A stretch of 22,019 bases of DNA from IMG/VR virus record IMGVR_UViG_2585427746_000008; one strand, given 5' to 3'. A program made the position numbers and the translations under genes. The stretch is from a virus (taxonomy: Duplodnaviria > Heunggongvirae > Uroviricota > Caudoviricetes). Shown here one piece after another: positions 1,947 through 13,475 of this stretch. The notes under the pieces are model-generated. The model had not been told where the DNA came from and searched no databases. It saw only the letters and a program-made list of their open reading frames with translations. Position 1 is the stretch's first letter. The number at the start of each line of letters is the position of its first letter.

Positions 1947-2192
1947 GTGAGTCTTATTGAAGATTGGTCTTCCGCCGATATAAAGGCAGCCTTAGAAAAA
2001 CGCGATACCAATTTGTCACGTTTATCAAGGGAAAATAATTTGCAGCCTAGGACTTTGGGTAATGCTTTGCGAGTTCCCTACCCTAAAGGTGAAAAGATAA
2101 TTGCTAGGGCTATAGGTGTAGAGCCACAGGTTATTTGGCCTACTAGATATGAACGACGTGCGCGGAGGAAATATGTGGGTTGCAATGACTGA
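1947..2192 (+). CDS. ner: Ner-like DNA-binding protein (Ner/Nlp family)
   Basis: 81-aa ORF with GTG start as first gene of the early operon. Resembles Mu Ner in size, position and motifs (LSRLSREN..., PKGEKIIA, PQVIWPTRY versus Mu PKGEQIIA, PEVIWPSRY). Confidence 0.8.
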   Translation: MSLIEDWSSADIKAALEKRDTNLSRLSRENNLQPRTLGNALRVPYPKGEKIIARAIGVEPQVIWPTRYERRARRKYVGCND

Positions 2193-4257
2193 ATTGATTT
2201 CATTCAGTGACCTACCTAGTTCTTTGGCAGGTCTGCACAAAAAAGCAAAGAGGGAAGCGTGGAAAACGCGGCTAAAACCAGGGGTAAAAGGGAAAGTTTT
2301 AGAGTGTGAAATAGGGGCTTTGCCTTTAACTGTTCAGCAGGCAGTACGCGAACGCTATGCCCTGCAACTGATGACGCAAAAAGCCGATGAATCACCGGCT
2401 CCGGTAGTGACAAAGGCCAGGCGCTCACCTGCCGTGGTTGATGCGGTGGAGGCATATCGCGGATCACCACAACTGATGCTCGAACGCCTCAATGCCCTGA
2501 CTGAAAACCAGCGCCAGGTGGCTGATGCACGAATCGCGATCGTCAGCGAAGTTCTGAAAGTCGCGCAACAACCTGGTTTCAGCTGTGCGAAGGCTATCCG
2601 GTTTATCGTTGACAACCTGGCACGTTCGCAACTGGACGAGCGCATTGTGGCAATGGTTGAGACGGCGAACGCCAAAAAGGGAAACAGCCGTGCGTTGAGT
2701 GAAATCACGCTGAAACGCTGGATTGCAGCCTTTAACAAGGCGCAGAACGCCGCTGAACGCCTGCTTTTGCTGGCACCTGGTAAGCGCCAGGAAATAAAAG
2801 CCGAAGATATTAACTGGCTGCCCGAATTTCTGGCGCAGTATCGCCAGTCAAACGGCCGACCAATGACCGAGGCTTACGAGGATTTTGTCGCTGAATGGCA
2901 GCACCGGCACGCTGATGAGCCTTATATGCTCGATATCATGCCGTCTTACGACACCATCCGCCGCGCAATGAAGAAACTGCCGGAAGTGGTGAAACAAAAA
3001 GGCCGGGTGACCGGCAGTGAATACCGCCAGCTTGAGGGATTCACGCGCCGCGACTGGTCCAGAATGCCGGTGAATTATGTCTGGATTGGTGACGGTCACG
3101 GCATGAAGCTGAAATGCAGGCACCCGGTTCACGGGCGGCCATTTGCACCGGAAGTGACCTTTGTTATCGACGGTGGCACGCGCTTTGTGGTGGGCTGGAG
3201 CCTTGACCTGGCTGAAAATGTTTTCGCCGTAGCCGGTGCCATACAGTACGGTATTCGTAATCACGGCAAACCGTTTCTGTATTACTCGGATAACGGTTCC
3301 GGGGAAACCGCCGACATCCTGGATAAGGAAGTTGTGGGGATCCTGCCGCGACTGGGGATTAATCACCCAACCGGGATTGCCGGTAACCCGCAGGGACGGG
3401 GCATTATCGAACGGCTTAACCGCACGTTACCGATGCGTATAGCCCGTAAATACCGCACCTATTTCGGGAAAGGTGCAGATCGCGAGACGTTACGCAAAAC
3501 CAACCGCGATTTACGCTCGGCATTTACCGCCCTGCAACAGGGCAAACGGCTGAACGCCCGGCAACAGTCAGCGATGCGTGATTTACCGTCCTGGTCTGAA
3601 CTGATTGATGCCATTCGTGATGGCGTTGAGTGGTACAACAACCGGCCGCACGATGAATTACCCATGAAGCCGAACGGGAAGCATTACAGCCCGGCGGAGT
3701 TCAGAAAAAAACGCCTGGCAGAAGAGGACACGGAAATTGAATGGCTGTCCGATGTTGAGCTGCGGGATATGTTCCGGCCAATGGTGGAACGCCCTGTAAG
3801 ACGCTGTGAAATACGCTGGCTGAATAATATTTACTACGCGCCCGAGCTGAGTGATGAGCATGGCCGCAAGGTGCTTATCAGCTATGACATTCATGATGCC
3901 GAACGAATTACCGTACGTCGCCCGGATGGCAGCGTGATTTGCGAGGCGGTATGGGACGGCAATAAACGCGAAGCCTTCCCGGTCAGCGCGGAATACTACA
4001 AACAGCAGCAACGCCTTAAAGGTATGCGTAAACGCGCAGAGGAAAAAATCCGTGATGCCGAGGATGAGGTTGTCAACGTGCTGGAGCACAAGCCGCAGGA
4101 GCCCTGGCTGGAAAACATATACCGCCCTGTGGGTAATACGGTGACCGTTCAGCAACCTGCCGTTGATGATGAGCCTGATGAAGAATACGAGCGTAATTTC
4201 CAGCGGGGATTGCAGTTGCTCGAAGCGAAATTAAAAGAAAATGACCCTCTGGCCTGA
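2173..4257 (+). CDS. DDE transposase (MuA-like)
   Basis: Roughly 695 aa. N-terminal winged-helix motif shared with the repressor. Catalytic-core-like motifs VWIGDGHG, YSDNGSGE and GRGIIERLNRTL are consistent with a D-D-E triad. GGAGG lies 4 nt upstream of ATG 2173; the gene overlaps the ner 3' end. Confidence 0.9.
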   Translation: MWVAMTELISFSDLPSSLAGLHKKAKREAWKTRLKPGVKGKVLECEIGALPLTVQQAVRERYALQLMTQKADESPAPVVTKARRSPAVVDAVEAYRGSPQLMLERLNALTENQRQVADARIAIVSEVLKVAQQPGFSCAKAIRFIVDNLARSQLDERIVAMVETANAKKGNSRALSEITLKRWIAAFNKAQNAAERLLLLAPGKRQEIKAEDINWLPEFLAQYRQSNGRPMTEAYEDFVAEWQHRHADEPYMLDIMPSYDTIRRAMKKLPEVVKQKGRVTGSEYRQLEGFTRRDWSRMPVNYVWIGDGHGMKLKCRHPVHGRPFAPEVTFVIDGGTRFVVGWSLDLAENVFAVAGAIQYGIRNHGKPFLYYSDNGSGETADILDKEVVGILPRLGINHPTGIAGNPQGRGIIERLNRTLPMRIARKYRTYFGKGADRETLRKTNRDLRSAFTALQQGKRLNARQQSAMRDLPSWSELIDAIRDGVEWYNNRPHDELPMKPNGKHYSPAEFRKKRLAEEDTEIEWLSDVELRDMFRPMVERPVRRCEIRWLNNIYYAPELSDEHGRKVLISYDIHDAERITVRRPDGSVICEAVWDGNKREAFPVSAEYYKQQQRLKGMRKRAEEKIRDAEDEVVNVLEHKPQEPWLENIYRPVGNTVTVQQPAVDDEPDEEYERNFQRGLQLLEAKLKENDPLA

Positions 4258-4334
4258 AATAAAAAAATAACCCGAGCGGCGACTCAGGTTATTTGATTAA
4301 ACTCGGAGAACTGTCTCAACGCGAGGTGAATAAT

Positions 4335-5267
4335 ATGACCGATATAAACGATGTAATCAAGACCATTGATGAACTTATTGATGGCGGCGTGCTGACGCAG
4401 TATGCCATCGCCAGAGAGGCGGGAATTTCCGACGGCACATTATCGGCTTTCCGCAAGGGGAAATATAAAGGCGATAACGCCGCTGTGGCTGCTTCCCTGC
4501 GCTCCTGGTATGAGAACTGGAATAAACAAAGCGCACTGCCGGAACCGCCGCAGTTTGTGGAAACTCAGACAGTCCAGGAGCTGCGCGCACTGTTTCAGGC
4601 GGTTCGCCTGATGGGCTGTATTAACGTTATTGTGGGCGTACCGGGTGTGGGTAAAACGGCCACTGCCCGTAATTACTGCCAGGAGCAACCAAACACCTGG
4701 ATGATCACCCTGTCACCCGCGCACTCCAGCGTCACGGAGTGTCTGCTGGAGCTGGCCGATGCGCTGGGGATTGATTACACCCGCGCGAACAAAGGGGCAT
4801 TATCCCGCGCCATCCGCCGTCGCCTGATGGGAACGCGTGGACTGGTGATTGTGGATGAGGCGGATCATCTTGGTATTGACGGTCTGGAGCAACTCCGGGC
4901 AATTCAGGACGCCACGGGGATCGGGATGGTGCTTATTGGTAACCCGCGCGGATTGTTTAAAGGTGGACGCCGCGCCTTTGATGATTTATCGCGCCTGTTC
5001 AGCCGTCTTGCCCGTACAAAACAACTTCGCAAGGCCAAAAAGGCGGATGTGCTGGCCATTGCCATGGCGTGGGGGATCAGTGGTGAGGCTGAGCTGGCCG
5101 TCATGCAGGCTATCGCTGAAAAGCCGGGAGCGTTACGCGTTCTGACACATACGCTTAACCAGGCGTGGCTCACCGCCAGCGGTGAAGGCGCGGCGCTGAC
5201 AGAAAAACATATTAATGCGGCCTTTAAAGAGGTTTATACCAACCCTGAATTACTCTCACAGGTGTGA
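4335..5267 (+). CDS. Transposition helper ATPase (MuB-like AAA+)
   Basis: Walker A motif GVPGVGKT and Walker B motif VIVDEADHL. Lies immediately downstream of the transposase. GAGGTGA RBS precedes ATG 4335; the ORF track start at 4293 lacks an RBS. Confidence 0.85.
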   Translation: MTDINDVIKTIDELIDGGVLTQYAIAREAGISDGTLSAFRKGKYKGDNAAVAASLRSWYENWNKQSALPEPPQFVETQTVQELRALFQAVRLMGCINVIVGVPGVGKTATARNYCQEQPNTWMITLSPAHSSVTECLLELADALGIDYTRANKGALSRAIRRRLMGTRGLVIVDEADHLGIDGLEQLRAIQDATGIGMVLIGNPRGLFKGGRRAFDDLSRLFSRLARTKQLRKAKKADVLAIAMAWGISGEAELAVMQAIAEKPGALRVLTHTLNQAWLTASGEGAALTEKHINAAFKEVYTNPELLSQV

Positions 5268-8845: not shown

Positions 8846-9397
8846 ATGATGAAATTACAACCCATGGGGCGAAAAGGTCGTGCACCTGCTCATGTCCGCC
8901 CGTGGACACCTGAAGAAGATGCGCTGCTGATTGCGCTTTATTCCTCCACCCCGGTTAAGGATATTGCCGCCAGAATAAAAAGAAGTGTCTGGGCCGTATA
9001 TAACCGGACTGGCGTATTGCGCAGTACATACCCGGAGTTGCTGAAATATAAACGACCGCGATTTACACCTGATGAAGATAAATTTATCCGAAAAAATGCC
9101 CGGACAATGACCTGCCAGCAAATGGGGGATTATCTCGGACGTAATAAAGACTCTGTCAGGTGCCGCGCAGGAATGATTGGTGCCGGATTAACAAAGTGCG
9201 GTGAGTTACGCCCCGGCACACGTATATCTGATGAGGATGTTCGTCTTATACGTGCACTACGGGATTCCGATTACCCTCGCCGTCTGTCATTCCGGGAAAT
9301 TGGCGAAAAGTTTGGCATATCTGAACATTCTGCTCACGCTGTTTATTACCGTCGACGGACCGCCGAGGACGCTGTATTACGGGAGTTAACGCCATGA
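8846..9397 (+). CDS. putative DNA-binding protein with three tandem helix-turn-helix-like repeats (Myb/SANT-like)
   Basis: Three spaced repeats: WTPEEDALLIALY...IAARIKRSVWAVYNR, FTPDEDKFIRKN...MGDYLGRNKDSVRCR, ISDEDVRLIRALR...IGEKFGISEHSAHAVYYRR. Strong AGGGGGTGA RBS. Confidence 0.5.
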   Translation: MMKLQPMGRKGRAPAHVRPWTPEEDALLIALYSSTPVKDIAARIKRSVWAVYNRTGVLRSTYPELLKYKRPRFTPDEDKFIRKNARTMTCQQMGDYLGRNKDSVRCRAGMIGAGLTKCGELRPGTRISDEDVRLIRALRDSDYPRRLSFREIGEKFGISEHSAHAVYYRRRTAEDAVLRELTP

Positions 9398-9579
9398 TAA
9401 AGAGACTTGTATTTTTCGCAATTATCGTTCCAGTGTGGGGGACTGGTTTTATATTTGCGATTACAGGAAACCTGTCCATTATGCCTGACATTTGGTTCTT
9501 TATCAGGATGTCGCTCTTCCTGTTTATTATGGATTTTCTCATCGGTATATACATTCGTATTTCCGGGAGGCGTAAATGA
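9394..9579 (+). CDS. small hydrophobic membrane protein (61 aa)
   Basis: Almost entirely hydrophobic (LVFFAIIVPVWGTGFIFAITG and FFIRMSLFLFIMDFLIGIYI), consistent with two transmembrane helices. Lies in a low-GC segment; the start overlaps the upstream stop. Confidence 0.45.
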   Translation: MIKRLVFFAIIVPVWGTGFIFAITGNLSIMPDIWFFIRMSLFLFIMDFLIGIYIRISGRRK

Positions 9580-10936: not shown

Positions 10937-10968
10937 AAATCCCGCCACAGCGCGGGATTTTTATTTTA
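10937..10968 (+). terminator. Rho-independent terminator ending the early operon
   Basis: 9-bp stem AAATCCCGC / GCGGGATTT (10937-10945 and 10952-10960) with a 6-nt loop, followed by TTATTTT. Confidence 0.7.
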
Positions 10969-11002: not shown

Positions 11003-11425
11003 ATGGCTGAAACACAGATGAGCATGTTTGGTGACAGCGAACAGCTGCACGCGCTGATTGACCGTCTGGATGATATTCCTGATGATGAGCTGAAAAAGAA
11101 CTGGCCCGGCACGCTGCGGGACCTGGTTGATGTGATCAGTGCTGAACTGCACCGTCAGGGGATTGAACCTGCTCAGGCGGGAATGCTTGCCCGTAAGGTT
11201 GCAGCCGCACAGGCCGGGTACATGGGCGGGCGTGGTTATTATCTCCCGGTCGGTGAATCCCTTTTCACCGAACTGCGCAATAATGAAATTTTTTCCCGCT
11301 GGAGCCAGGGCGAAAAAATTGAAACCCTGCGCCGCCACTACCAGATGTCAGAGACGCAGATTTACTCCGTTATCCGCAACCAGCGTCGCCTGCATCAGGA
11401 ACGCACGCAGCCACGGCTTTTCTGA
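11003..11425 (+). CDS. Mor/C-family transcriptional activator
   Basis: 140 aa with a C-terminal HTH (ETLRRHYQMSETQIYSVIRNQRRL) resembling Mu Mor/C, including the conserved YLP..G motif (GRGYYLPVGESL). Located after the early terminator and before the lysis genes; GGAGG RBS. Confidence 0.75.
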   Translation: MAETQMSMFGDSEQLHALIDRLDDIPDDELKKNWPGTLRDLVDVISAELHRQGIEPAQAGMLARKVAAAQAGYMGGRGYYLPVGESLFTELRNNEIFSRWSQGEKIETLRRHYQMSETQIYSVIRNQRRLHQERTQPRLF

Positions 11426-11496
11426 TATTCCGCAAATCCTGCCCACTTTTTCCCACGGTTACGCTGACTCAGAGAACACCATGAGACAGCGTAACA

Positions 11497-11997
11497 ATGC
11501 CAAAACTCCCCGCACCCCTGCGTAAAAAGCTGATTGCCCTTGTTCTGGCCGGAGCCGGGACGTTCACCATTGCCACGCACTACACCGGCTACTGGGAAGG
11601 GAAAGAAAACACCACGTACATTGATCCCACCGGCACCCCCACCATCTGTTACGGCCATACCGGCCCGGATGTGAAACCGGGGATGACAAAAACTGATGAA
11701 GAGTGTCTGGAGCTGCTGGAAAAGGACATGAAATGGGCCTTTGCGGCTATCGATCGTCATGTTCAGGTGCCGCTTACCCGTGGTCAGACGGTGGCGCTGG
11801 CCTCCTGGATTTTCTGGGCCGGTGAAACGAACTTTCGCAACTCCACGCTCCTGCGCCTTATCAATGCCGGGCAGATGCCCGCGTCCTGTAAGCAGTATAT
11901 CCGCTGGATTTATTCAAAGGGGGTAAAACTCCCCGGTCTTGAGGCCCGCCGTTCGGCGGATGAATGGTTATGTCGTTACGATTTGCCGAAAGTCTGA
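11497..11997 (+). CDS. SAR endolysin (T4-type lysozyme fold, glycoside hydrolase family 24)
   Basis: N-terminal signal-anchor-like segment LIALVLAGAGTFTIA followed by catalytic-region motif YWEGKENTTYIDPTGTPTICYGHTG and NFRNSTLLRLINAG, resembling P21-type SAR lysozymes. Confidence 0.85.
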   Translation: MPKLPAPLRKKLIALVLAGAGTFTIATHYTGYWEGKENTTYIDPTGTPTICYGHTGPDVKPGMTKTDEECLELLEKDMKWAFAAIDRHVQVPLTRGQTVALASWIFWAGETNFRNSTLLRLINAGQMPASCKQYIRWIYSKGVKLPGLEARRSADEWLCRYDLPKV

Positions 11998-12074
11998 ACC
12001 GCTTCTGGCGACCGCTCATGATTGCGCTGCTGTGTGCCGTTGTGCTGCTGCGGGGTGTGCTGTGGCTGCGGTGA
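11964..12074 (+). CDS. candidate 36-aa hydrophobic peptide between endolysin and spanin genes
   Basis: Small ORF (MVMSLRFAESLNRFWRPLMIALLCAVVLLRGVLWLR) with one predicted TM helix, overlapping the endolysin 3' end. Not in the ORF track (under 60 aa) and no convincing RBS. Confidence 0.2.
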   Translation: MVMSLRFAESLNRFWRPLMIALLCAVVLLRGVLWLR

Positions 12075-12109
12075 ACAATCCCTTACCGGCCCTGATTGCC
12101 GGAGGCTGT

Positions 12110-12460
12110 ATGGCGGCGCTGGGGGTGATGAGCGTGCTGGCTGCCGTGGTATGGGGAATGCACCAGAAGACGCAGCGCCTTGAGGACAATAATCATGTGC
12201 TTGTGCGTGAACGGGACGAAGCCCGTCTGGTGCTGGCAAACCAGCAACGCACCCTGCAACTCATTTCACAAATCAGCAAGGCGGCCACGAATGAAAAGCA
12301 ACAGAACATTCAGCACAGCGAGGAACAGCAGAGCGTTGTCCGCCGGTCGCTGGCAACAGTGCCTGCGGCCTCTGTTCCTGTGCCTGATGATGTGGCTGAG
12401 CGGGTGCGCCGGGCCGTCTGTGAAATACGTGCCTGTGCAGCCGGTTCCGATCCCCGCTGA
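12110..12460 (+). CDS. i-spanin (Rz-like inner-membrane spanin subunit)
   Basis: N-terminal TM helix AALGVMSVLAAVVWGM followed by a charged helical periplasmic region. GGAGG lies 4 nt upstream of ATG 12110. The longer ORF from 11939 lacks an RBS and overlaps the endolysin. Confidence 0.65.
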   Translation: MAALGVMSVLAAVVWGMHQKTQRLEDNNHVLVRERDEARLVLANQQRTLQLISQISKAATNEKQQNIQHSEEQQSVVRRSLATVPAASVPVPDDVAERVRRAVCEIRACAAGSDPR

Positions 12461-12662
12461 ATGGCTGGCTGACTGCCTGGTCCCTCCTGCGCCGGAGCCG
12501 TTCACGTTTGGGGCATCGGTCACTTACAACCTGCAACTGCTGGCGGTAATCAAGAACTGCAACGTGGACAAGGCCAGTATTCGTCGTCTGGAGGCGCGGC
12601 GACAACATGAATTTACTGATATGGCCGGAACGCCTGCTGTTCCGGCAGGAAAGACGAAGTAA
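12291..12662 (+). CDS. o-spanin (Rz1-like outer-membrane lipoprotein), overlapping the i-spanin gene in another frame
   Basis: Lipobox LSGC followed by a proline-rich mature region (SVKYVPVQPVPIPAEW...PPAPEP). Starts inside the i-spanin gene in a different frame and extends past its stop. The exact start is uncertain; ATG 12291 gives an unusually long leader and an internal TTG may be used. Confidence 0.6.
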   Translation: MKSNRTFSTARNSRALSAGRWQQCLRPLFLCLMMWLSGCAGPSVKYVPVQPVPIPAEWLADCLVPPAPEPFTFGASVTYNLQLLAVIKNCNVDKASIRRLEARRQHEFTDMAGTPAVPAGKTK

Positions 12663-12669
12663 GGAAAAA

Positions 12670-12900
12670 GGTATGGATGATTCAGATTGTGCTCAGGCTG
12701 TCATGGAGCGGGCAACAGAACGCGCCCTTTGTGACCGGCTGACACGTAAGCGCCGGGTGGCGGAGACACCGGGCAGGCGTGTATGCGCGGACTGCGGGGG
12801 TGACATTCCGGCTGCCCGTCTGGTTGCCGTGCCGGATGCCATCCGTTGTGTGAACTGCCAGAACATCATGGAGGCCGGTCATGTGGGTCAGCATCGTTAA
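12670..12900 (+). CDS. TraR/DksA-family C4 zinc-finger protein
   Basis: CxxC...CxxC pattern CADCGGDIPAARL...AIRCVNCQ typical of phage TraR-like proteins. AAGGAAAAAGG RBS before ATG 12670. Confidence 0.7.
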   Translation, partial: GMDDSDCAQAVMERATERALCDRLTRKRRVAETPGRRVCADCGGDIPAARLVAVPDAIRCVNCQNIMEAGHVGQHR

Positions 12901-13192
12901 AGATTATGTTGTGCCGATCCTGTCGGCAACGGCCACGGCCGGGGGGATCTTCATGGCGCTGATGCGCAAAACCTTCGTCCCCCGCGAGGCCTTTGAAAAA
13001 CTCTCCGATCGGGTTGAGCGGGTGGAGAGCCGGATTTCCGGCCTGCCCACGCAGCAGGAGGTGAACAGACTCAATATCGAAATCACCACCCTGCGCGGTG
13101 AGCTAAAGGCCACCAACGCCACCCTGAAATCCGTCTCTCATCAGAACGAACTGCTGCTGGAGCAGGCTGTAAGGAAAAAACACAATGAGTGA
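12881..13192 (+). CDS. membrane-anchored coiled-coil protein, candidate releasin (Mu gp25-like)
   Basis: N-terminal TM helix (VVPILSATATAGGIFMAL) followed by a heptad-rich helical region. Its position after the spanins and TraR-like gene matches Mu gp25. Confidence 0.5.
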   Translation: MWVSIVKDYVVPILSATATAGGIFMALMRKTFVPREAFEKLSDRVERVESRISGLPTQQEVNRLNIEITTLRGELKATNATLKSVSHQNELLLEQAVRKKHNE

Positions 13193-13475
13193 TTTCATTA
13201 CTGAAGATCAGCGTCTTGTCATTCTGCGGTCGCTGGCGGATTACAACGGCGAACTGGGCGAATCCGTGCTTCAGGACTGCCTGGATGATTACGGCCACCG
13301 CGTGTCCCGCGACACCGTTCACACCCACATTGCCTGGCTTGCTGAGCAGGGACTGGTGCGTAAGCGCACGCTTGTTAACGGTTATTTCATCGCTGAACTG
13401 ACCGGCCGGGGTCAGGATGTGGCGGAAGGTCGTGCCACTGTTCCGGGTGTGAAGAAACCACGCGCAAGGGGGTAA
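13185..13475 (+). CDS. hypothetical protein, possible winged-helix (Mu gp26 position)
   Basis: 96-aa ORF with AAGGAAAAAA RBS; its start overlaps the upstream stop. Confidence 0.5.
   Translation: MSDFITEDQRLVILRSLADYNGELGESVLQDCLDDYGHRVSRDTVHTHIAWLAEQGLVRKRTLVNGYFIAELTGRGQDVAEGRATVPGVKKPRARG

Follow-up and report, generated by a model that had tools for sequence, protein, structure and literature searches.

The late lysis cassette of a Mu-like (transposable) Escherichia coli prophage appears to carry, between its endolysin and spanin genes, a small membrane-peptide gene that phage Mu lacks. The prophage lies in a 22,019-nt stretch of viral DNA (Caudoviricetes; IMG/VR record IMGVR_UViG_2585427746_000008), analyzed as a whole and hereafter called the window; the cassette studied here occupies positions 11497–13192 and, judged by homology and gene order, is a Mu-type late lysis cassette. 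Within it, a 36-codon open reading frame (ORF), hereafter the small ORF, bridges the gene of a signal-arrest-release (SAR) endolysin and an overlapping pair of inner- and outer-membrane spanin genes (i-spanin and o-spanin). We estimate at roughly 70% the probability of this reading, i.e., a Mu-type cassette with a genuine intercalated membrane-peptide gene that is absent from Mu. The cassette is of a known type; the intercalated gene is undescribed in the resources that we searched. Related loci were drawn from viral, genome, and metagenome collections, and those bearing the small ORF form four clades: A (E. coli and Shigella), B (Citrobacter braakii and others), C (loci L101 and L102), and D (locus L170). 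Feature coordinates were taken from the ORF listing and from direct reading of the sequence (Table 1), and every feature that a preliminary description of this region had listed was recovered where that description had placed it.

The small ORF lies in a third reading frame (frame 0, as does the o-spanin ORF; the endolysin ORF is in frame 1 and the i-spanin ORF in frame 2), overlapping the 3′ end of the endolysin gene by 34 nt and the start of the i-spanin gene by 13 nt. Its predicted product reads MVMSLRFAESLNRFWRPLMIALLCAVVLLRGVLWLR in clade A, MVMPLRLTAVLVHYWRPVMVSVLCVVLLLRGVLWLA in clade B (where the region has ~70% nucleotide identity to clade A), MVMSEWIARCAERHWRSGITGLLIMVIILRGILLCLA in clade C, and MVMSERFADAVNRLWRPAMLAALGGVIVLRGVLWLI in clade D. 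The ORF is intact, and of equal length, in 23 of the 24 unique clade A and B sequences, and intact also in clades C and D; compared with the clade A peptide, identity amounts to 61% in clade B, 42% in clade C, and 64% in clade D, a range similar to that of the spanins. The preliminary description had left undecided whether this ORF encodes a peptide or is spurious, and had said that a lack of conservation would count against it: because the ORF is conserved in four clades and shows a protein-coding pattern of substitutions, it is more than a chance open frame, and the first of these two options is the one that stands.

The substitution pattern is visible in a single comparison and in the clades at large. 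Relative to the O157:H7 copy, there are seven base differences past the endolysin stop, located in six codons of the small-ORF frame (frame 0): five of these codons are synonymous and one changes Val to Leu, and all the same changes are non-synonymous in the i-spanin frame. We then turned to codons 12–29, a segment free of overlap with other genes, and counted the changes over a minimum spanning tree built from 23 distinct sequences: 36 of 72 changes were synonymous, where 21.7 were expected from relocating the same mutations at random within the segment (P = 0.0002), and the excess held for clade A alone (20 synonymous and 10 non-synonymous changes, P = 0.0004) and for clade B alone (14 and 15, respectively, P = 0.007). 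Among the six frames, only frame 0 joined a low ratio of non-synonymous to synonymous substitution rates (dN/dS, here 0.38) to zero stops in any sequence; the i-spanin frame (frame 2) is open across this stretch in clades A and B but has a dN/dS of 1.8, and the remaining frames either have a dN/dS of ~1 or higher or contain stops. Within-clade dN/dS values were 0.24 and 0.34 for the small ORF and 0.19 and 0.22 for the i-spanin gene, and codons 15–19 (WRPLM) accumulated nine synonymous and two non-synonymous changes. Overall, the small ORF is under purifying selection at the protein level and is very probably a genuine, translated gene. No RNA-level signal was detected in the same interval, either by folding (z = 0.18) or as an Rfam match, and the antisense ORFs at 11976–12239 and 12016–12189 were rejected, all three minus-strand frames having stops in several relatives. 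Locus L040 and most of loci L104–L163 belong to other phage types, and no equivalent ORF was found in them.

The most likely start of the small ORF is ATG 11970, which would give a product of 34 aa, exactly the protein called by some annotation pipelines as “Uncharacterised protein [Shigella sonnei]”; a Caudoviricetes hypothetical protein has been called as well. A TGA directly before codon 1 in clade A leaves either ATG 11964 or ATG 11970. The former is replaced by GTG in five of eight clade B sequences through the wobble position of a Glu codon in the endolysin frame; the latter is retained in every unique sequence of clades A and B but one (26 of 27; L010 has GTG), and also in clades C and D. 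ATG 11970 can exist only if the overlapping Leu codon of the endolysin is TTA or CTA, codons that jointly make up 9.3% of Leu codons in the prophage, and this choice is kept in all four clades; in L100, a relative without the small ORF, that Leu codon is CTG. Since codons 15–19 are constrained, coding would start upstream of Met19, and ATG 12018 (Met19) was ruled out as a start given the strong constraint on codons 15–18 before it.

At its other end the small ORF is tied to the i-spanin gene. Its stop at 12074 lies 13 nt beyond the i-spanin start in all four clades, i.e., the stop overlaps the downstream start as in a leader ORF, and the i-spanin start codon, GTG or ATG, falls within the Leu33-Trp34 codons in every clade. 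Upstream of that start, all four clades carry CGGGG without a nucleotide change, even at the wobble position of the Arg codon, and the GCGGGG element would serve as the i-spanin ribosome-binding site. Where the small ORF is missing, as in the relatives Mu, L100, L103, and L163, it is the end of the endolysin ORF that overlaps the i-spanin start; the small ORF thus seems to take over the position of the upstream coupled gene. Programmed frameshifting, either from endolysin to peptide or from peptide to i-spanin, was also considered: no slippery heptamer could be read at either junction, from which we infer that it is not used.

The predicted peptide has the same layout in all clades, i.e., a net-positive N-terminal segment of ~16 residues, an invariant Trp15-Arg16 pair, and a 19-residue hydrophobic stretch in which Arg30-Gly31 is embedded. 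The membrane-insertion propensity of this segment (residues 17–35; Kyte–Doolittle 2.3, insertion energy ~0) equals that of the i-spanin transmembrane domain (TMD) and far exceeds that of the SAR anchor of the endolysin, the summed insertion energy being +3.3 for the SAR anchor versus ~0 for the i-spanin TMD. The product is therefore probably, to judge from its sequence, a single-pass inner-membrane peptide, and its topology is likely N-in/C-out with essentially no periplasmic tail. Like holins, it has at least one TMD. The charged hydrophilic C-terminal cytoplasmic domain of holins is missing, since the peptide ends 0–1 residues past the hydrophobic segment (...GVLWLR, then the stop) and carries its charges at the N-terminus, and its 36 residues hold a single hydrophobic segment instead of the two TMDs of the pinholins S21 68 and LydD. 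The term “pinholin-like” used in the preliminary description is accordingly one that we do not retain: the peptide has one C-terminal TMD, no charged C-terminal tail, and no second, SAR-like TMD, and it matches no holin family. Searches of Pfam, PHROGs, NCBIfam, and PADLOC gave no match to any family for clade A and only sub-threshold, TMD-level matches (E ~ 0.03) for the other clades, and no polar or glycine-zipper face conserved across clades was found. A word-indexed protein search with the 48-aa clade D version returned no match, degenerate DNA patterns run over viral and metagenome contigs recovered only clades A–D plus chance matches, and the peptide sequence was not found in the literature searched.

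Table 1 Features of the lysis cassette and its flanks (window coordinates)
Feature	Coordinates	Strand	Evidence or remark
Mor/C-family transcription activator	11003..11425	+	PF08765 Mor 6.7e-31; RefSeq “Mor transcription activator family protein”
SAR-type endolysin, GH24 muramidase, 166 aa	11497..11997	+	PF00959 1e-36; phrog_7 endolysin
Small ORF, 36 codons from ATG 11964 (34 from ATG 11970), encodes MVMSLRFAESLNRFWRPLMIALLCAVVLLRGVLWLR	11964..12074	+	Comparative evidence
Most likely start ATG of the small ORF	11970..11972	+	Formed by the TTA/CTA Leu and Cys codons of endolysin EWLC
GCGGGG, Shine-Dalgarno-like	12050..12055	+	6 nt before the i-spanin start; encodes Arg30-Gly31 of the peptide
i-spanin, 132 aa, N-terminal TMD and helical periplasmic domain	12062..12460	+	phrog_214 Rz-like spanin 2e-30
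o-spanin precursor, 123 aa, +1 frame of i-spanin	12291..12662	+	PF23793 LysC 1.7e-17; phrog_3001, phrog_456
Lipobox LSGC, Cys codon 12405-12407 (Cys39)	12396..12407	+	Sequence reading
TraR/DksA-type C4 zinc-finger protein, Mu gp24 position	12673..12900	+	PF01258 8e-12; TIGR02419 2.4e-19
DUF2730 protein, homologue of Mu gp25 releasin	12881..13192	+	PF10805 1.2e-22; 33% identity to gp25, E=2e-18

The genes on either side of the small ORF identify the cassette. Of 5426 complete E. coli genomes, 231 contain prophage DNA with 90–99.9% identity to positions 11400–13250, two matching GenBank records carry the label “inserted Mu-like phage”, and a profile family match was obtained for each large cassette gene. 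According to the RefSeq annotation of three copies and the curated annotation of Mu, the gene order is GemA, Mor/C-family activator, lysozyme, i-spanin, o-spanin (LysC), TraR/DksA zinc finger, DUF2730, gp26-like, and gp27; this GemA-to-gp27 synteny is common to all four clades as far as each locus reaches.

The endolysin combines a GH24 domain, a catalytic triad, and a weak signal-anchor preceded by basic residues, as expected of a SAR endolysin and as had been proposed beforehand. It is homologous to Mu gp22 (40% identity), and its best PDB relative is 3HDE, the SAR endolysin R21 of phage 21 (2.9e-25), in an alignment that begins at residue 5 and so reaches the N-terminal anchor. The E-x8-D-x5-T triad can be read in the translation (WEGKENTTYIDPTGTPT), with E34 and D43 invariant in the alignment with Mu gp22, and the N-terminus consists of a basic MPKLPAPLRKK followed by a weakly hydrophobic, Gly/Ala/Thr-rich anchor, LIALVLAGAGTFTIATHYT. 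Enzymes of the R21 type are freed upon membrane depolarisation; for the endolysin described here, tethering to the membrane followed by release is predicted. Within clades its dN/dS is 0.09, and identity to the endolysin of the window is 84% in clade B, 48% in clade C, and 55% in clade D.

The overlapped spanin pair that had been noted previously, with its LSGC lipobox, was likewise recovered. The i-spanin has the N-terminal TMD, periplasmic helical domain, and Rz-like homology of its class, with 25% identity to Mu gp23 (E=6e-6). Because the codon aligned to GTG 12062 is a possible start in the other clades too (ATG in B and D, GTG in C), and because the preceding GCGGGG is invariant, the predicted i-spanin start is fixed at 12062. 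RefSeq is inconsistent at this point, using 12062 in strain AST198 and a GTG equivalent to 12032 in O157 (L001 2163 versus L002 2128), and in O157 strains it names the product “endopeptidase”. An extended i-spanin starting from ATG 11960 or GTG 12032 was rejected, given the dN/dS of 1.8 upstream of 12062 and the stop that follows the equivalent of ATG 11960 in clades C and D. In clades A and C, the cytoplasmic segment with which the i-spanin begins (12062–12090, MAAVNNPLP) is free of positive charges, and Lys and Arg follow the TMD on the periplasmic side; by the positive-inside rule, this charge layout is unusual for type II membrane proteins.

The o-spanin (MKSN...LMMWLSGC; 42% identity to the Mu o-spanin) starts inside the i-spanin gene and ends beyond it, with an overlap that comprises the last 170 nt of the i-spanin gene, i.e., an overlapped architecture. 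LSGC fits the lipobox consensus [LVI][ASTVI][GAS]C (PMC6139136) and provides the expected lipoprotein signal; LTGC, LIGC, LTAC, and LVAC occur in relatives. Counted from ATG 12291, the signal peptide has 38 residues, five of them basic, compared to 28 residues in Mu. The preliminary description had called it atypically long and had suggested a non-ATG internal start: the length stands, and the internal start, a TTG, was rejected as it is absent from clades B and C. In clades A, B, and C, the distance from ATG 12291 to the lipobox Cys is exactly 38 codons, an AAGG or AGGA element precedes this ATG, and the i-spanin codon over it is AAT, GAT, or CAT (Asn, Asp, or His), so that the amino acid varies and the AT of the ATG is kept (12288–12293; L005, L033, L101, and L103). 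This site reads as a clear case of the start of one gene constraining codon choice in the gene that it overlaps. Because the 38-codon spacing and the AT are kept and the TTG is not conserved, ATG 12291 is most likely the o-spanin start, and the long basic n-region would be a conserved family trait, not an artefact of a misplaced start. The RefSeq product “Rz1-like lysis system protein LysC” starts at GTG 12420, downstream of the Cys codon (L001 2521–2763; L002 2516–2758), and so lacks both the signal peptide and the lipidation site; L003 uses yet another start. Misplaced starts in automated annotation have been documented for many spanins (PMC6139136, Kongari et al. 2018). Together, the two subunits are predicted to form a complex that spans the periplasm and disrupts the outer membrane.

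Downstream, the cassette extends to a DUF2730 gene that the preliminary description had missed. Its product is full-length, including the N-terminal TMD (PF10805 spans residues 6–97 of 103), and a DUF2730 protein with an N-terminal TMD encoded beside a SAR endolysin in a Mu-like phage, syntenic with Mu, is what a releasin would look like. The zinc-finger gene before it shares the CxxC...CxxC arrangement of Mu gp24, and the Mor/C-family gene sits directly upstream of the cassette at the position of Mu C, which precedes lys. No recognisable holin was found in the late cassette by family searches or by a hydropathy scan covering plus-strand ORFs down to 30 codons, in which the i-spanin and the small ORF were the only strongly hydrophobic products of the late cassette, and no promoter or terminator sites were found inside the cassette. 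Further upstream, the GemA-like and Mor/C-family genes have between them a strong hairpin resembling an intrinsic terminator (10937–10960, plus strand; a 9-bp stem and then a T-run), which would part the early/middle transcript from the activator and lysis genes. The early/middle region also holds, upstream of the GemA-like gene, a strongly hydrophobic 61-codon ORF (9394–9579, plus strand) with apparently two TMDs and a basic C-terminus (...RISGRRK), a layout like that of a class II holin or pinholin; it has no family match. In the left part of the window, an apparent host membrane-protein gene runs in from the edge (positions 1–984); the prophage end comes after it, with a minus-strand ORF (1212–1730) at the position of the Mu repressor and large plus-strand ORFs (2149–4257 and 4293–5267) at the positions of transposases A and B.

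Mu is the closest known system: its cassette (gp22, gp23, o-spanin gp23.1 = Mu_55, gp24, and gp25) has the same gene order, homologous genes, and an upstream Mor/C-type activator, and its late operon, like that of the prophage studied here, has no recognisable holin. Mu lyses without a holin, the releasin gp25 freeing the SAR endolysin (PMC9239132, Chamblee et al. 2022). Unlike the present cassette, Mu has no ORF between gp22 and gp23, and its i-spanin start overlaps the endolysin end by 17 nt; here it is the peptide gene that carries the i-spanin start. Phage 21 has an endolysin, R21, of which the present one is a clear homologue, but the gene of its pinholin S21 68, a protein with two TMDs, precedes that of R21, whereas the peptide has one TMD, is encoded downstream of the endolysin, and matches no holin family. 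The spanins resemble the overlapped P2 lysB/lysC type (PMC6139136) in that the o-spanin is a LysC protein (PF23793) encoded in the +1 frame past the i-spanin end with a consensus lipobox; its 38-residue signal peptide is, compared to that type, unusually long and basic, and of a length conserved across clades.

For the peptide itself, three small membrane proteins offer the nearest precedents, which we regard as functional analogies and not as relatives. In the lyz-lydD-lydE operon of P1 (PMC9025707, Bednarek et al. 2022), a membrane-protein gene begins in the 3′ end of a SAR-endolysin gene and overlaps the next gene at its own 3′ end, as here; LydD, however, is a demonstrated pinholin of 84 aa with two TMDs and a highly basic C-terminus, compared to 34–36 aa, one TMD, and no basic tail for the peptide, the two share no sequence similarity, and the spanin genes of P1 are unlinked. 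Lcc6 of the Shewanella phage LambdaSo (bioRxiv 10.1101/2024.01.23.576932) is similar in kind, being a small single-TMD protein outside the triad of holin, endolysin, and spanin; it acts at the inner-membrane step of SAR-endolysin lysis and was unexpectedly required. It differs in having 65 aa, an N-terminal TMD, and a 43-aa cytoplasmic tail, in being encoded far from the lysis genes, and in acting with a pinholin, and no similarity to the peptide was detected. Mu gp20, with 39 aa and a single C-terminal TMD in N-in/C-out orientation, belongs to the same size class and has the same layout; it is, however, the product of a middle gene upstream of C and dispensable for lysis (PMC9239132), without detectable similarity to the peptide, and the prophage lacks the gp18–gp20 region.

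Given these parts, we propose the following course of lysis. The SAR endolysin would be exported and held in the inner membrane, the DUF2730 releasin would free it, and the two-component spanin would fuse the inner and outer membranes. Translation would run as a coupled chain from endolysin to peptide, i-spanin, and o-spanin, where ribosomes that complete the peptide would arrive at the start of the i-spanin gene, which in this clade is a weak GTG. The peptide would place a segment of ~16 residues with net positive charge in the cytoplasm and Trp-Arg at the interface, followed by the C-terminal TMD, and our best guess is that it modulates the inner-membrane step, i.e., when or how efficiently the SAR endolysin is released, or else the membrane potential, possibly through contacts with the SAR anchor, the releasin, or the i-spanin TMD. 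We do not regard it as a canonical holin. That the peptide has any role in lysis is a proposition to which we give slightly less than even odds, and any specific mechanism, whether depolarising or release-modulating, is at best doubtful. The boldest version is of similarly doubtful standing: a new lysis factor of those Mu-type phages in which no holin is recognisable, in the form of a minimal tail-anchored inner-membrane peptide that either depolarises the membrane as a one-helix pinholin or sets the time of endolysin release by binding the SAR domain or the releasin. It would be made in a fixed ratio with the spanins by translational coupling.

Several observations weigh against a genuine peptide gene with a part in lysis. 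Genomic position is the one ground for assigning the peptide to lysis, and a phmmer search of 1.8 billion representative proteins found only the clade B peptide and one spurious repetitive protein, with no homologue outside the clades. Selection could be tested in clades A and B only, as clades C and D amount to about one sequence each. Codons 1–11, located within the endolysin gene, are not constrained in their own right (dN/dS 0.04 in the endolysin frame, ~2 in the small-ORF frame), the Shine-Dalgarno match before 11970 is weak (GGCGGA, 10 nt off) and is also bound by endolysin coding, and Arg30-Gly31 may be kept for the i-spanin ribosome-binding site and not for the peptide. The RefSeq pipeline leaves the small ORF out. 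In L029 (on the same contig as L051, IMGVR_UViG_2526164665_000023), a 1-nt insertion breaks the frame from the upstream ATGs, and L100, which belongs among the ORF-bearing clades by endolysin similarity (53% to that of the window), is without the small ORF. With the ORF absent from both L100 and Mu, it is dispensable for this cassette type.

Four other explanations of the small ORF were weighed against the reading of an intercalated membrane-peptide gene. It could act as a leader of which only the act of translation matters, bringing ribosomes to the weak i-spanin GTG, with a functionless peptide. The stop 13 nt past the i-spanin start in four clades, the invariant GCGGGG inside the ORF, and the unconstrained first 11 codons all fit this idea, and coupling seems to be general, given that the i-spanin start overlaps the endolysin ORF in Mu, L100, L103, and L163. 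Such a leader should, however, show a dN/dS of ~1, whereas the observed values are 0.24–0.38, with a synonymous excess and at a level like that of the i-spanin; hydrophobicity and the Trp-Arg motif are kept even in the diverged clades C and D, and in clades B and D an i-spanin ATG with the same Shine-Dalgarno-like element would make coupling less needed. We consider a pure leader improbable. Equally improbable, in our judgement, is a true minimal holin or pinholin that collapses the proton motive force at a set time and so triggers release of the SAR endolysin. It would account for a gene that follows and overlaps the SAR endolysin as lydD does lyz in P1 (PMC9025707), for the strongly hydrophobic single TMD, and for the want of another holin candidate in the late cassette, and Lcc6 is an example that small extra membrane lysis factors exist. 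What speaks against it is the structure of the product, with no charged C-terminal domain, one TMD against two in S21 68 and LydD, and no conserved polar or glycine-zipper face, along with the lack of a holin-family match, the absence of the peptide from L100 and Mu, and the presence already of a releasin, which replaces the holin in Mu (PMC9239132).

The remaining two explanations deny the ORF any function. As a relic, it would be the stranded 5′ end (N-terminus and TMD) of an ancestral i-spanin gene, cut off by a frameshifting duplication or insertion. In Mu, L100, and L103, the i-spanin does begin at the site taken here by the small-ORF start, the peptide is laid out like an i-spanin N-terminus (short segment, TMD, Trp), and the Pro codons that open the two hydrophobic segments are 74 nt apart, which is not a multiple of 3 and fits a duplication that shifted the frame. 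Yet the similarity between the peptide and each clade's own i-spanin was no better than for composition-matched shuffles (P 0.12–0.82), the best case, against Mu gp23, reaching P=0.02 before correction for 20 tests. Nor would a relic without function retain an open frame, an ATG that depends on a rare codon, and a dN/dS of 0.24–0.34 across clades that are ~30% or more diverged; we find this explanation very unlikely. An origin of the peptide by duplication of the i-spanin TMD was also rejected, local alignment scores lying within shuffled controls. Finally, the ORF might be spurious and untranslated, its openness following from GC-rich composition and the constraints of its neighbors: it is short, has a weak ribosome-binding site, and is not in RefSeq, and frame 2 is also stop-free in clades A and B, i.e., open frames arise easily here. 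Frame 2 nevertheless has a dN/dS of 1.8 against 0.38 for frame 0, and the synonymous excess is frame-specific and significant in two clades independently; constraint at the RNA or DNA level would not favor third codon positions, and no RNA structure, Rfam, promoter, or terminator signal was found. There is, in our estimate, very little chance that the ORF is spurious.

Some individual loci display arrangements of their own. In L029, the insertion falls in the run GCCGAAAGTC, at about the equivalent of window position 11988, and the endolysin frame thereby continues into the last two-thirds of the small ORF. The product predicted there is an endolysin that ends in a TMD (...YDLPKSLNRFWRPLMIALLCAVLLLRGVLWLR), which may reflect either a natural fusion or an error in sequencing. 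In L100 (2950–3090), the homologous frame stops after 14 codons, and the endolysin ORF is ~32 codons longer and overlaps the i-spanin start by 82 nt. L148, an unrelated holin-bearing phage, has a 48-codon ORF with a C-terminal TMD (...RLVFILFLFVFGTFISAIRWW) between its SAR endolysin and i-spanin genes (3091–3237); it overlaps the i-spanin ORF and may have arisen independently as an analogue of the small ORF. At the same position between endolysin and i-spanin, L162 carries a 52-codon ORF whose TMD is N-terminal.

Standard annotation fails in lysis cassettes of this kind: the small gene is missed, the i-spanin start is inconsistent, and the o-spanin is begun past its own lipobox. The group that bears the small ORF is widespread, found in the 231 complete E. 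coli genomes mentioned above, including O157:H7, as well as in Shigella sonnei annotations and Citrobacter braakii. The peptide is a concrete candidate for an extra control element of Mu-type lysis. It is also separable from the endolysin, as its start can be removed by a silent Leu change and codons 12–29 are free of other genes. If the peptide were indeed a lysis factor, the description “holin-less” would fail for this large group of Mu-like prophages, including those of O157:H7, and the peptide would be the smallest known lysis-timing protein of a tailed phage.

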